From contig CAVWCX010000001.1 of the NCBI GenBank assembly GCA_963753595.1, positions 32,001 to 96,000 on the forward strand: 64,000 nucleotides of DNA, read 5' to 3'. The notes below the pieces were generated by a model. The model made no database searches, was not told the DNA's origin, and saw nothing but the letters and a program-made list of their open reading frames with translations. Position numbers and translations under genes: made by a program. How positions within the stretch are numbered: the stretch's first letter is position 1; each line of letters begins with the position of its first letter. Of this stretch, positions 14,562 through 36,935 are shown piece after piece. This DNA comes from Candidatus Methanoperedenaceae archaeon. GTDB lineage: Archaea; Halobacteriota; Methanosarcinia; Methanosarcinales; Methanoperedenaceae.

Positions 14562-16259
<1,698 letters not shown>

Positions 16260-16273
<14 letters not shown>

Positions 16274-16604
16274 AAGAGGCGAAGTTTATTGGGTCAAACT
16301 CGATCCGATCGAAGGATCAGAGATCGGGAAAACAAGACCAGCTGTCGTGATCTCAAATAATATTAACAATGAATTTGCTGATACTTTAACTGTCATTCCT
16401 GTCACTTCAAGTGTTGGGAAAGTGTACCCTTTTGAAGTTCTCATAAAGAAAGGTATTGCAAATGTATCAACCGATTCTAAAGTCAAGGCAAATCAAATAA
16501 GAACGGTGGATAAAAAGAGGCTGAATGAGCGAATAGGGATAATTCCTGATGAGATATTGAAAGAGATAGAGAAAGCCGTGAAGATCCACCTTGAAATTAA
16601 GTAA
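16260..16604 (+). CDS. mazF: MazF/PemK toxin
   Basis: RRGEVYWVKLDPIEGSEIGKTRPAVVIS, QIRTVDKKRL. Confidence 0.93.
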
Positions 16605-17177: not shown

Positions 17178-17586
17178 TTAGTTCCTCTTACCGGCCTGGA
17201 TATCCCATCTCACATCTTGCGCCAGAGACCGTCTTGCAGCAGCTGCAATATCTAATTGTTCATATATATATTCACGTAAGTACATATCTTCTATTTTTTC
17301 CGCTTCATTTTCGATCTCATGCTGGCGACTGAGAATGTTTCCAAGTTCTCTTTGTGCATGATTCCTGTCTGTACGCTGCCAGCTTTCAGCTATTGTCGAA
17401 AGCGAGCGCCTTAATCTTTCAAGTCCGATCCTTATCCGGTGGAATTCCGGTCTTTTCAATCTTTCTTTTGCATAGTTTTCATATGGCGATTCCTGTTGAA
17501 TTTCCTCTGAAAATTCATCTATATCCGATACTTCACCATTCCATTTGTTATGGATGGCAAAAACGATCCCTTCTTTGGTTTAACAT
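17178..17586 (-). CDS. Helical hypothetical protein (~135 aa), predicted to be made by +1 frameshift at TTT-TGC (17557-17562) from leader MLNQRRDRFCHP* (17548..17586)
   Basis: +1 frame open for 128 codons from the slip site to the stop at 17178; no ATG before the TTG at 17459. Confidence 0.7.
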
Positions 17587-17726: not shown

Positions 17727-18035
17727 ATGGTTTCGGTGATCAATATGAGGGATATTTTTACAGGTGATGGGTTTAAGTTGCCAGATACAGGCATTTCAGG
17801 AAAAGGATTGGAAAATTACAGTTCTGCTAAGATCGAAGAATTCTCACCTTCGATGAAACTTGTTCTCAATATACTTGAAAATCATGGGCCACTGACACAA
17901 AAAGAGATAACGAAGGTAACCCGTCTTCCCACAAGAACAGTGCGCTATGCCTTAAACAGATTAAAACAGGAAGATATTTTAGAAGAGCGTGAATATTTCC
18001 AGGATGCCAGGCAGTGTTTATATCATATAAAATGA
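17727..18035 (+). CDS. Winged-helix (MarR/TrmB-like) transcriptional regulator
   Basis: KLVLNILENHGPLTQKEI...LPTRTVRYALNRL...DARQCLY. Confidence 0.88.
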   Translation: MVSVINMRDIFTGDGFKLPDTGISGKGLENYSSAKIEEFSPSMKLVLNILENHGPLTQKEITKVTRLPTRTVRYALNRLKQEDILEEREYFQDARQCLYHIK

Positions 18036-18080
18036 TTAGGCTTTTTTCAGGACTCTACAAGACTTGTTTTCAGGTAATAA

Positions 18081-18150
18081 TTGCCTTTGTCTTTCTGGAA
18101 ACCGAATGAATATATCAAATTTGGCTCATTTACTCGATTTAAATATATAT
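18081..18150 (+). promoter_or_regulatory. Regulon operator plus TATA
   Basis: TTGCC (18081-85), CCGAATGAA, TGGCTCATTT (18122-31) at 36-nt spacing, then TTTAAATATAT. Confidence 0.65.
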
Positions 18151-18176
18151 GAAAACTATGTTGTTTTGGTGATAAA

Positions 18177-18333
18177 ATGACACTACAAGAAAACAGAAGG
18201 GATTTACTTTGTCCCCGGAATAAAATACAGTAAAACAAAAAAGGCTATCAATCCCGAAAGTGATCAGGAGAAAGCATTGGGCGAATTTCAGGTTAATGCC
18301 CGGATGCATGATAATGTCTGGTGGCTTATATGA
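18177..18333 (+). CDS. Leader MTLQENRRDLLCPRNKIQ* (18177..18233) with +1 extension from CTT-TGT (18207-12) whose TGA overlaps the next ATG
   Basis: GGTGA RBS, ATG, shared motif AGA AGG GAT TTA CTT TGT; +1 frame open 42 codons ending in an ATGA overlap at 18330-33. Confidence 0.7.
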
Positions 18334-18479
18334 CCGCGACCAGACAGTACAAATGCCCGAACTGCAAACATTCGATATCGATAGCAACGGCAGATTTCAT
18401 CCGGGGGATTGCCATGACATCATGCGGTGATTGCGGCAGGAATGCTTTTGCAATAGACGAAGTTCTGTTGAATGGATAA
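18330..18479 (+). CDS. Small Zn-ribbon protein, 49 aa (below track cut-off)
   Basis: MTATRQYKCPNCKHSISIATADFIRGIAMTSCGDCGRNAFAIDEVLLNG; two CxxC pairs, GGTGG RBS. Confidence 0.8.
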   Translation: MTATRQYKCPNCKHSISIATADFIRGIAMTSCGDCGRNAFAIDEVLLNG

Positions 18480-18545
18480 AAAAAAACAGGGCGCTTTAAA
18501 TGATCCTATCCATTGGCGCCCCTTTCCTTATTTTTTGAGGTAAAA

Positions 18546-18641
18546 ATGAATAATAATAATGAAGAAAGAAATAAAAATAAAAATCCAGATGATGATGAAG
18601 ACCTGAGGCGCTTCCTGCGTGGAGGTTTTGGGGCAAAGTGA
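18546..18641 (+). CDS. Putative 31-aa peptide MNNNNEERNKNKNPDDDEDLRRFLRGGFGAK
   Basis: GAGGT RBS just before ATG; no homology recognised. Confidence 0.4.
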   Translation: MNNNNEERNKNKNPDDDEDLRRFLRGGFGAK

Positions 18642-18791
18642 GCGCACGAGCAATAACGGAATGTGTCCGGGGGGTCACATTTCACCTCCTGTTTTATTAC
18701 TTCCAAAAGAATCAGATCAGTTGTGACAACAATTGCTCCGATAAATAGGTTTATAAAGGTTAAATCCAAGTTTAAGCTGGAGAATTTAAAA

Positions 18792-19080
18792 ATGAATTTT
18801 AGAAGGAATCGTCTTTGCCATTACTGGCCCACAGATTGAATCGATAAAGATAGACCATTTACCGCCATCAGCAAAACTTGTTTTTAAGGTGCTTGAATCG
18901 AGCGGTTTTTTAACACAGAAAGATATTGCAAAGCAAACATATCTTCCGGCCAGGACAGTGCGTTATGCCCTGAACAGGCTGAAAGAAGAAAAAATATTGC
19001 AGGAGCGCTTCTATTTCCAGGATGCGCGCCAGAGCCTTTATGGGCTGAATGTTATTGTTCCGGGGGTGGTGAACGTATAA
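18792..19080 (+). CDS. Winged-helix regulator (~95 aa), predicted to be made by +1 frameshift at CTT-TGC (18813-18) from leader MNFRRNRLCHYWPTD* (18792..18839)
   Basis: Paralog of 17727 gene; homology (KIDHLPPSAKLVFKVLE vs KIEEFSPSMKLVLNILE) extends upstream of the GTG at 18889 into a frame with no ATG/GTG/TTG. Confidence 0.8.
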
Positions 19081-30819: not shown

Positions 30820-32063
30820 TCAGATGACCTCCCTCGGGTCTGCGATCTCACCACGAAGCGCGCTTGCAGCCGCAGTTTCAGGCGAAGACAGGTAAATCAA
30901 TCCTCCTGCCCCCATACGTCCTTTGAAGTTCCGGTTGGATGTGGAAAGACACGTCTCGCCTTCACATATTACTCCCTGGTGGGCGCCAAGACACGGCCCG
31001 CATCCGGGCGGCGCAATAACAGCGCCTGCTTTAAGAAGAGTGGAAATTATCCCGGATTCTGTGGCTTTTATGAGTATCGAACGCGAAGCTGGAAGCACGA
31101 TCGTCCTGGTTTTCACCTGCTTTCCATGCAGGATCTTTGCAACTACCTCAAGATCTTCGTACCTGCCATTAGTACAGGAACCTATGAAAACCTGGTCAAG
31201 AGGTGTCCCAACGACTTCGCTTATATTGAAAACATTATCCACTTCATGCGGTTTTGCGATCTGCGGTTCAAGGTTTGTCACATCATAATATAAATCTTCG
31301 AAGTATTTGGCATTGTCATCAGCATAAACCGGTTCATATTTTTCTTTTGCCTTTCCATTCAGAAAAGTGAAAGTTTTCTCATCAGCCGGCACTATGCCGG
31401 TTTTTGCTCCCATTTCTATGGACATATTGCAAAGCGTCATACGCTGCGCCATGGAAAGGTCTTGGATTGTCTCCCCATAATATTCGATGGCTTTATAATT
31501 AGCGCCATCGGTTCCTATGTTTTTGATTATATTAAGTGTCAGGTCTTTTGCCGATACCCCTTTGAAAGCTTTCCTTCTACCGTTATCCTGATAGTCTCTG
31601 GCACTCGAAGCCAGAGTTTTCCTGATGCAAATATCTCTGCCATATCTGTCGCCCCGACACCTGTTGCAAATGCCCCGAACGCCCCGTATGTGCATGAGTG
31701 CGAATCCGCGCCTATTATGAGTTTTCCAGGCAGGGCAAATCCATTTTCAGGAAGCACCTGGTGGCATATACCTTCGCCTATGTCAAAGAAGCTGGTAATT
31801 CCCTGTTCGCGAACCCATTGCCTTATTCCCTGATGCAGTTTGGCGCCGGTATCGGTATGCGCAGGCGTATAGTGATCAAATGGTATGATTATTCGTCCCG
31901 GATCCCATACTTTCTTTACTCCCATCTCCTTAAATGCTTTCACGGCAATAACGCCTGTGCCGTCATGCGCCATCGCATAATCAATATTGGCTATCACAAA
32001 ATCATCTGCATCGACTTGTTTTCCGGCTGCGCGGCTGAGTATTTTTTCGCTGATCGTTGGCAT
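30820..32063 (-). pseudogene. LeuC/AksD-family large subunit, split by a 1-nt deletion in a G-run at ~31557-31560 (mutation or sequencing error)
   Basis: [44 protein letters not shown] across two frames. Confidence 0.88.
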
Positions 32064-36605: not shown

Positions 36606-36831
36606 TTATCTACCTCTGAAATTAATTGTTCGTTTATTATTCAATCCGGCAGTCAATTCATTCTCAACTCTTGCTATCATAGAATCAAGTGTTTCAAGTA
36701 TCGGCGTTCTTCTTTGCGCCCTTGAATACTCAAATTCGCGCCATTCCCTTAAGGTATTGAGGACCGGGGTTGTTTTCTGTGCTTTGCCTTTATCGGTGAC
36801 AAAGGCGATTCCTTCTTTTTATCTGATTAAT
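36606..36831 (-). CDS. Leader (ATT)NQIKRRNRLCHR* (36790..36831) with +1 extension from CTT-TGT (36799-36804) ending 2 nt before the dsrH-like ATG
   Basis: GGTGA RBS 6 nt before ATT; AGA AGG AAT CGC CTT TGT CAC; +1 frame open 66 codons (VTDKGKAQKTTPVLNTLREWREFEYSRAQRRTPILETLDSMIARVENELTAGLNNKRTINFRGR*). Confidence 0.7.
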
Positions 36832-36865
36832 ATTGTATCACCAGATACCTGATTATTAATGCAAT

Positions 36866-36935
36866 ACTTATATCAGTTCAGAAATCAGCAACTTTTGATT
36901 GGTTAATTCTGTTTTTGTAACAATTGGGGCAAGTT
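36866..36935 (-). promoter_or_regulatory. Regulon operator plus TATA
   Basis: AAATCAGCAA (36882-91) + 36 nt + GGCAA (36928-32). Confidence 0.8.

Follow-up and report, generated by a model that had tools for sequence, protein, structure and literature searches.

In the prfB gene of release factor 2 (RF2), a programmed +1 frameshift takes place at CUU UGA C with a Shine-Dalgarno (SD)-like element upstream, and the +1 sites of yeast Ty1, ABP140 and EST3 read CUU AGG C or CUU AGU U. Gene pairs overlapping by ATGA, known in archaea and bacteria, are translationally coupled by termination and reinitiation. This text deals with a locus in which features of these systems are found together, namely positions 18177 to 18479 of a 64,000-nucleotide stretch of Candidatus Methanoperedenaceae DNA (the window; assembly GCA_963753595.1, contig CAVWCX010000001.1, positions 32,001 to 96,000), where a short leader open reading frame (ORF), a long ORF in its +1 frame (ORF-A) and a small zinc-ribbon gene follow one another. 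Further relatives of such sites are described in the relevant passages of a 2021 review (PMC8211752), which cover "hungry codon" frameshifting and the +1 frameshift of antizyme, a polyamine sensor. For Archaea, the same passages give one programmed frameshift as shown, a -1 shift in fucA1, and a +1 shift as suggested only, for a haloarchaeal virus. Cysteine-responsive, leaderless polycysteine short ORFs are described in part of a preprint on mycobacteria (bioRxiv 10.1101/834739).

From sequence comparison, and with a probability of roughly two in three, the region is a copy of a lineage-specific translational recoding cassette, in which a +1 shift would lead from the leader into ORF-A, and reinitiation would lead from there onto the zinc ribbon. 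All elements of the unit lie on the plus strand at 18138-18701. Those up to the zinc ribbon are as follows.

18138-18145, plus strand: TATA-box-like TTTAAATA, 39 nucleotides 5' of the leader ATG, in a block conserved in a 20-locus alignment
18168-18173, plus strand: SD-like element GGTGAT, 3 nucleotides 5' of the leader ATG, complementary to the 16S 3' tail ...GGAUCACCUCCU
18177-18233, plus strand: leader ORF in the 0 frame, 18 codons, MTLQENRRDLLCPRNKIQ, with ATG at 18177 and TAA at 18231-18233
18195-18212, plus strand: cassette core AGA AGG GAT TTA CTT TGT, with CTT at 18207-18209 and TGT at 18210-18212
18207-18210, plus strand: candidate slip site CTT_T, with the Cys codon TGT (18210-18212) in the A site
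18198-18201, plus strand: alternative slip site AGG_G, within the core
18181-18333, plus strand: ORF-A, 50 codons in the +1 frame, no canonical start before codon 32, TGA at 18331-18333
18330-18479, plus strand: zinc-ribbon gene, 49 amino acids, MTATRQYKCPNC...CGDCG, with CPNC and its own GGTGG/ATG

The translation of ORF-A is HYKKTEGIYFVPG...ARMHDNVWWLI, and its frame is bounded on the 5' side by a TGA (18178-18180) that overlaps the leader ATG. At the other end, the TGA of ORF-A (18331-18333) and the ATG of the zinc ribbon (18330-18332) share the four bases ATGA. The region upstream of the TATA box, where the initial annotation had named an operator, is also conserved in an alignment of relatives, and from the usual archaeal TATA-to-start spacing the transcript would start near 18168. 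The initial annotation of this stretch had named a TATA box, a GGTGA ribosome-binding site and a leader with CTT TGT, all of which were found in place, as was the +1 frame ending in NVWWLI-TGA that shares ATGA with a 49-amino-acid zinc ribbon. It had taken the unit to consist of these two parts; both are real, but the unit is larger, as a conserved 31-amino-acid ORF (ORF-C, 18546-18641) follows in 23 of the 33 related loci. Several Candidatus Methanoperedens metagenome-assembled genomes have the zinc ribbon among their public proteins, annotated as "hypothetical protein". ORF-A has a single match, a truncated call of 39 amino acids, among about 5.8 billion proteins, and a permissive Rfam search of 17900-18900 gave two chance-level matches only (E = 2).

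The locus shares two features with prfB- and Ty1-type sites, a short ORF in the upstream frame before a long start-less +1 ORF, and a candidate P-site codon that can re-pair. As in prfB, the 0-frame ORF is short, the P-site CUU can re-pair with UUU, and a purine-rich GG element is found a few bases upstream; the proposed mechanism would also share with prfB a slow A-site codon whose decoder sets the rate of the shift. Unlike in prfB, a sense codon (Cys UGY) takes the place of the stop in the A site, the archaeal host has no RF2, and the AGAAGG of the cassette is weakly complementary to the 16S tail. The cassette site also differs in lying 5-10 codons from the start, like a leader, in using UUU UGY besides CUU UGY, and in serving six or more unrelated gene families per lineage, where prfB is a single one. 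A P-site CUU slip brought about by a slow next sense codon with a scarce tRNA would be common to Ty1, hungry codons and the cassette. However, Ty1 depends on a rare isoacceptor and its shift is not known to sense a nutrient, whereas the cassette codon is Cys, with a sole tRNA-Cys found and Cys-poor products. A metabolite level would set the yield of the +1-shifted product as it does for antizyme, which differs in being eukaryotic and in having a UGA A-site codon, an RNA pseudoknot and a single gene family. Mycobacterial and attenuator leaders are likewise very short 5' ORFs with a regulatory amino-acid codon before sulfur- or cysteine-related genes, but they carry runs of Cys codons and work by in-frame attenuation or stalling, whereas the cassette has one Cys codon and would change the frame. 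An amino-acid leader-peptide attenuator was rejected, since several such codons are expected there and most leaders have one Cys codon (two or three in type-4 leaders, see below). A search for terminator/antiterminator alternatives after the leader gave no consensus structure, a window fold z of -1.78 and no Rfam match. Finally, the junction resembles ATGA-coupled pairs in the bases shared by the ORF-A stop and the zinc-ribbon start, and in a hairpin that may hide the downstream start; unlike in such pairs, the upstream ORF would itself be reachable only by recoding.

Comparison within the genus shows the frame layout, its conservation, and a +1 frame that is kept open. The core block GAAGGGRTTTACTTTGYC, with at most one mismatch, was found at 33 loci in 31 of 49 Candidatus Methanoperedens genomes, and its reversed-pattern control at none. 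At 26 of the 33 loci the layout is that of the window, with a leader, a +1 ORF ending in VWWLI and a stop, and ATGA onto the zinc-ribbon ATG. The junction block is out of phase at one locus (L017), one has a divergent +1 ORF of 96 codons (L020, in G022), and one is a deletion variant (L067). At the other four (G023, G044, G046 and G060), the spacer is missing and ...EGIYFVPD... joins YKCPNC directly; in G060, the zinc ribbon is itself out of frame over its second half. The zinc ribbon lacks an ATG at these four fused loci, so that it is reachable there only through the leader ATG and a +1 shift. Orthologous leaders follow M-T-x-Q-E-x-R-R-D/G-L-L-C and start with ATG at 29 loci and ACG at three, the start being lost or truncated at one. 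Their stop lies 3-8 codons past the CTT in 32 of the 33 loci (12 codons in L020), and the +1 frame of the 33 loci lacks a canonical start.

Between core and junction, the spacer is poorly alignable and has eight different lengths, and the ATGA block is in +1 phase in 26 of the 27 two-ORF loci. Conservation of this overlap in relatives was the test that the initial annotation had set for its own frameshift model; the overlap is kept with an open +1 frame in these 26 loci, and the model draws support from it as well as from the four fused ribbons without ATG and from the core at other start-less genes. In the spacers of the 27 loci, the +1 frame has no stops and the other two frames have 50 and 103. 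By mononucleotide shuffling of one representative per spacer group, with groups formed by single linkage on shared 8-mers, the open +1 frame has P = 0.064-0.118 per group, and the product over the six groups is 4.8e-7. The Leu codon of VWWLI varies among CTT, CTG, CTC, CTA and TTG; these changes are synonymous in the +1 frame and give Y/D/H/N or A/V in the zinc-ribbon frame. In its middle part, ORF-A is under weak constraint, with a summed ratio of nonsynonymous to synonymous change (pN/pS) of 0.59 against 0.73 and 0.68 in the shifted frames. By these patterns, ORF-A may be read as a frame that needs to be translated, almost regardless of its sequence. The window's genome also has a paralogous locus (G000:C7, L022) without the cassette; there, the ORF-A-like ORF has an ATG of its own, ends in ...DYVWWLI and a stop, and has the same ATGA junction as the window.

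The same layout is found on a wider scale. Among 98 distinct core sites in fetched loci, an in-frame ATG is present in 89, in 88 of these 7-11 codons upstream, and the ATG-to-core distance is a multiple of 3 without exception. A 0-frame stop follows within 12 codons at 95 sites, the +1 frame is open for at least 20 codons at 94, and upstream of the core it lacks ATG, GTG and TTG at 85. Six of the sites that do not fit are chance hits within ordinary genes. For comparison, the full layout occurs at 86 of 11,950 background YTTTGY sites (0.72%) in the window's genome. An in-frame, "mended" core that is one T shorter gave one hit in 53 genomes of the family against three control hits; being at control level, it suggests that the out-of-frame state is kept and not merely tolerated.

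The motif counts (33 loci and 98, 108 and 140 sites) are conditioned on the search pattern, which takes away from their force. For this reason, loci were also anchored on the downstream proteins, independently of the motif. In the five protein-anchored families, a core scoring at least 9 of 12 was found in 27 of 29, 16 of 16, 22 of 22, 13 of 14 and 18 of 18 loci. The downstream protein is in +1 phase in all 96 of 96 anchored loci, and TGT or TGC follows YTT in 95 of them.

The core AGA AGG RAT NNN YTT TGY also stands before further start-less +1 ORFs, at least five in number. In the window's genome, AGAAGG-N6-YTTTGY has four copies, all in the window (18195 on the plus strand, 18801 plus, 17574 minus and 36816 minus), with none for the reversed control, and each of them lies within a short ORF, behind which a long +1 ORF with no usable start extends. 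A relaxed scan of this genome found the layout at all four zero-mismatch core sites, one with ATT for ATG, and at none of the sites with one or two mismatches among the matches listed. The three copies besides that of the zinc ribbon are as follows.

18792-18839, plus strand: leader of the second cassette, 15 codons, MNFRRNRLCHYWPTD, with the core at 18801-18818 and a +1 ORF at 18796-19080 encoding a winged-helix regulator
17548-17586, minus strand: leader MLNQRRDRFCHP of a TTT TGC cassette, with the core at 17557-17574 and a +1 ORF of 133 codons at 17178-17579, function unassigned
36606-36837, minus strand: cassette 5' of a DsrE/DsrE/DsrE-TusA operon, with the core at 36799-36816 and a +1 ORF of 70 codons at 36606-36818

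In the regulator, the matches to HTH_24 and TFIIE_alpha start at residues 25-31 of the +1 ORF, and the first canonical start, GTG 18889, is residue 32, so that the first helix lies upstream of it. The core is in phase in 16 of 16 orthologues of the regulator and in 18 of 18 of the 133-codon ORF. The cassette of the DsrE operon is present in 19 of 20 protein-anchored orthologues, and its leader in the window has ATT (36829-36831) where relatives have ATG. In a fifth family (type 4, for example L081, L072 and L082), the +1 ORF has about 45 amino acids with EGIVFAV...IRDFL...RNSRWN and is always located 5' of a PstS-family lipoprotein and a PstC-like permease, both scoring about half of the curated cut-offs. 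The exact pattern AGAAGGNATNNNYTTTGY was found at 140 sites in 45 genomes of the genus against six control hits, and at 29 sites in 106 other genomes of the order against 15. The excess outside the genus comes from genera of the same family and from G107, a member of another family with four sites; fetched examples have the same layout. By eye, three cassette promoters in the window (about 18100-18137, 18730-18750, and 36880-36900 on the minus strand) carry an AAT(T/A)TTGCT(C/G)-like element about 10-20 nucleotides 5' of the TATA box. This element may be a common transcription-factor site and place the three in the same regulon.

From this layout we infer the occurrence of the shift, its exact site, its response to cysteine and the coupling to the zinc ribbon, in the following way. 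A short 5' untranslated region (UTR) with the GGTGAT ribosome-binding site would lead to the leader, initiated at its ATG. Within AGA AGG RAU NNN YUU UGY, a fraction of the ribosomes would shift by +1; the likeliest event would be a slip of peptidyl-tRNA-Leu (or -Phe) from YUU to UUU while the Cys codon UGY awaits decoding in the A site. Ribosomes that do not shift would terminate the leader a few codons on. Those that shift would read ORF-A, a fast-evolving, Cys-free "translated spacer", as far as the UGA that overlaps the zinc-ribbon AUG (AUGA). On ending ORF-A, they would open a hairpin around this AUG and reinitiate, and the zinc-ribbon output would track the rate of frameshifting.

The YUU_U slip is the most likely one by analogy with prfB and Ty1. 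At 108 filtered sites the candidate P-site codon is CTT in 75 and TTT in 33, never TTC, and the next base is always T; this count is conditioned on the pattern, and such slip codons are also seen in the anchored sets. Variation synonymous in the 0 frame (AGA/CGA, CGT/CGC/CGA, TGT/TGC) fits 0-frame reading up to YUU, as does the ATG-to-core distance in multiples of 3. A Joint Genome Institute (JGI) metagenome protein, P0037, has a type-5 leader fused in frame as ...MFNQRRNRF-ATHNKW..., which is the junction predicted for a UUU_U slip; it is one of 22 long forms read out of 100 database hits, comes from a single contig, and may represent either a mended allele or a sequencing error in a homopolymer. 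tRNA-Leu(GAG), tRNA-Phe(GAA) and a single tRNA-Cys(GCA) were found, all ordinary, and none of the 35 tRNAs detected by ARAGORN decodes four bases, in a genome that is 92% complete and with intron-bearing tRNAs possibly missed. AGAAGG matches five of six positions of the complement of CCUCCU at the 16S 3' end. As an SD-like stimulator it would be weak, its duplex energies being not clearly beyond background. Two other explanations were rejected. The first, judged by eye, is transcriptional slippage, as A/T runs in the core are at most 4 in the window and GAAAAAAG occurs only in some relatives. The second is reinitiation after the leader stop, because the +1 frame has no start codon near the variable leader stops.

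The A-site codon may point to cysteine. Both of its synonymous forms are used at the 108 filtered sites (TGC 76, TGT 32). Over about 6,800 residues, the shifted products of five families contain four Cys (0.06%), and the share in genome ORFs of at least 200 amino acids is 1.15%; with one representative per family (about 353 residues), about four would be expected. Given an A-site codon that is invariably Cys and shifted products that are nearly free of it, the switch probably raises these genes when charged tRNA-Cys is short, and cysteine sensing by the cassette is plausible on these patterns. The neighbours of the cassettes include MetW, a MetX-like hydrolase, O-acetylhomoserine sulfhydrylase, two TusA and three DsrE-family genes, as well as an NMT1-type binding protein with an ABC transporter. 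SepRS, SepCysS and CysRS are all present in the genome. A shortage of charged tRNA-Cys could reflect sulfur or cysteine limitation, and possibly the state of tRNA modification that depends on S-adenosylmethionine (SAM). The P-site tRNAs (Leu-CUN and Phe) and tRNA-Cys would all need G37 modifications made with SAM. In general terms, such modification at G37 is stated to block +1 slips and to aid aminoacylation (PMC5372744). If so, cysteine supply and methyl-donor (sulfur) status could be integrated at one site. Tentatively, and with rather less confidence than in the cassette itself, Candidatus Methanoperedens and a few relatives may possess a small regulon built on a portable 5' recoding cassette (SD, ATG, 1-5 codons, AGG RAU NNN YUU UGY). 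No earlier natural frameshift switch would then be known to respond to how far a sense-codon tRNA (here Cys-tRNA-Cys) is charged; this one would do so by turning on Cys-free proteins and integrating cysteine and methyl-donor status.

Several observations weigh against a cysteine-reading shift at YUU_U. A canonical +1-frame start lies upstream of the core at 13 of the 98 sites, and such starts are also seen in several of the 22 long database forms; direct initiation may operate in this minority. The leader start is irregular in places, with ACG at the three loci noted above (type 1) and ATT for ATG in four type-3 loci (G000, G052, G004 and G045) whose cassettes are otherwise intact; near-cognate initiation may account for both. 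Four winged helix-turn-helix (wHTH) loci have ATG instead of AGA, which makes the leader ATG AGG AAT CGT CTT TGC.... Duplexes of AGAAGG with the 16S tail reach -4.4 to -9.0 kcal/mol, values that 4-38% of random 18-mers also reach, and no compensatory changes were found in the junction hairpin in 24 sequences. One family stands before a PstS-like, phosphate-type transporter, whose link to sulfur is not obvious, and a zinc ribbon with four Cys codons fits poorly with induction under severe Cys shortage. Lastly, GGG/GGA and ATC/ATT vary inside the core as third positions of the +1 frame, and the T of RAT is invariant. Such +1-type variation beside invariant 0-frame thirds suggests either a constraint on the nucleotides or an earlier shift at AGG_R, in which case the Cys codon would not be a sensor.

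In the latter alternative, tRNA-Arg(UCU) would slip from AGG to GGR, constitutively or under tuning that does not involve cysteine. Translation would then give the downstream I/V-x-F-A/V as a conserved peptide at the N-terminus, and only the ribosomes that had not shifted would come to read the Cys codon. Besides the third-position variation just given, 95 of 98 sites have a purine at position -6, as re-pairing with U34 needs, though any base would keep Gly. A TTA to TTT change in type-1 L049 is Y to F in the +1 frame, and tRNA-Arg(UCU) is the only tRNA found for AGR codons in the 92% complete genome. However, this alternative leaves unexplained why TTT is never TTC, why TGY is present in 95 of 96 anchored loci, and why the products are Cys-free. 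The CGT/CGC/CGA variation is synonymous only in the 0 frame and would give V/A/D in the +1 frame, P0037 carries the junction of a UUU_U slip, and the A-site codon after AGG (GAU, AAU or GGU) is no obvious pause codon. An AGG_R slip is considered unlikely.

A cassette without any frameshift is still less credible. Here, the 18-nucleotide core would serve as a DNA operator bound by the nearby winged-helix regulators, or as a binding site on RNA. The leader would be an upstream ORF in its own right, with the long ORFs starting non-canonically or internally and the zinc ribbon made from its own GGTGG/ATG. Archaeal repressors often bind 20-40 nucleotides downstream of the transcript start. The core nucleotides are indeed conserved in both frames at that distance from the predicted start, and the unit is flanked by two winged-helix genes. 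The ACG and ATT leader starts, the 13 sites with an upstream +1-frame start, and a JGI call of one ORF-A from a non-canonical start would also agree with this view. However, a binding site gives no reason for an ATG-to-core distance in multiples of 3, for the +1 phase of all 96 anchored loci, or for the lack of a start upstream of the core in 85 of 98 +1 ORFs. Nor does it explain the start-less wHTH domain, the four start-less zinc ribbons and the open, in-phase ORF-A; the +1 ORFs share no conserved near-cognate start, and the type-1 Ile codon alternates with GTT. It is very improbable that ORF-A is untranslated, the small gene simply standing behind a conserved 5' UTR and the open frame and ATGA being by-products of the zinc-ribbon ribosome-binding site (VWW overlaps its GGTGG, ORF-A has no family match, and its middle has the weak constraint described above), as this would not account for a frame free of stops where the other two have 50 and 103 (product of the shuffle probabilities 4.8e-7), for eight spacer lengths all but one in phase, for in-frame zinc-ribbon fusions in four species, or for a paralogue with its own ATG, the same C-terminus and the same junction.

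With ORF-A read as a translated frame, the remaining elements of the unit concern the step onto the zinc ribbon and what follows it.

18316-18345, plus strand: possible hairpin of GUCUGGU (18316-22) and ACCAGAC (18339-45), with the zinc-ribbon AUG and part of GGUGG in the loop
18546-18641, plus strand: ORF-C, 31 amino acids, acidic, MNNNNEERNKNKNPDDDEDLRRFLRGGFGAK, with its own GAGGT and ATG
18668-18701, plus strand: terminator-like hairpin and T-rich tail at the end of the unit, from a bacterial-type scan and suggestive only

The junction hairpin is part of the minimum-energy fold of the window's sequence. In 24 junction sequences, 92.9% of the cells in its arms are paired, against 23-43% when the partner is slid. 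RNAalifold returned three pairs only for the same 24 sequences, and the hairpin was not in the consensus; the lack of covariation comes from the 5' arm, which never varies. As a conserved structure at the zinc-ribbon AUG, the hairpin fits coupling by termination and reinitiation. The ATGA overlap is also present at the paralogous locus that has no cassette.

The zinc ribbon has a match in 19 of 24 genomes of the same genus, with several paralogues per genome, and in none of 16 genomes of other genera. C9, C12, C32 and C35 are invariant in 30 sequences, and pN/pS is about 0.1-0.3 in valid pairs; the summed value of 0.34 is inflated because two of the 16 pairs contain broken or truncated ribbons. 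The AlphaFold2 model has four strands with a pLDDT of 79.9 and a predicted zinc-ribbon fold, with two CxxC knuckles and a small beta sheet. Foldseek against the PDB gave no match with E < 1 and only generic small zinc ribbons, all Pfam zinc-ribbon families were below their gathering scores for the 49-amino-acid protein, and the curated models Elf1 (NF011482; 17.1 against 109 bits) and RpoP (14.5 against 72) were below cut-off. The protein resembles the C(P)XCG archaeal micro-proteins (Haloferax HVO_2753, NF041909) in having fewer than 70 amino acids, two Cys pairs (CPNC...CGDCG) and a zinc-ribbon fold. Membership in the HVO_2753 type was rejected, since the NF041909 score is 12.8 bits against a cut-off of 80 and PDB 6ydh came at Foldseek rank 28 with all E > 1; unlike HVO_2753, the window's protein has one predicted zinc site, not two. 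By its sequence, it is a generic four-Cys zinc-ribbon micro-protein, a putative metal binder with no assigned function. It may act with, or next to, ORF-C, which has no family match, ends in the invariant E-x-L-x-RFLRGG-x-GAK (EDL(R/Q)RFLRGGFGAK), and forms an in-frame fusion with the zinc ribbon at one locus (L020, G022). Complex prediction for the two proteins scored 0.00 in both runs.

Two other ORF pairs in the window were noted. At 30823-32063 on the minus strand, overlapping ORFs of 291 and 174 amino acids, each in a frame of its own, correspond respectively to the C-terminal and the N-terminal part of an aconitase-family protein; a frameshift in the gene, a split gene or a mistake in the assembly could account for them. 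At 16046-16604 on the plus strand, ORFs of 75 and 114 amino acids overlap by 14 nucleotides and look by eye like a ribbon-helix-helix antitoxin and a PemK/MazF-type toxin.

No published report of the cassette was found in literature searches. If the proposal is true, Archaea would gain both their first programmed +1 frameshift of a cellular genome and their first recoding regulon of several genes. It would also introduce a new regulatory principle, in which a "hungry" frameshift at a sense codon serves as a nutrient sensor and is used as a module across several gene families. The genes switched on would be a regulator, the leader protein of a sulfur-relay operon, the leader of a transporter, and the zinc ribbon by way of ORF-A and reinitiation. 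The cassette is a short, testable element for frameshifting on archaeal ribosomes. For an environmentally important methane oxidiser, the proposal would explain the lack of a start codon in a set of conserved genes, which gene callers therefore miss or truncate; most type-5 proteins, for example, are called about 40 residues short.

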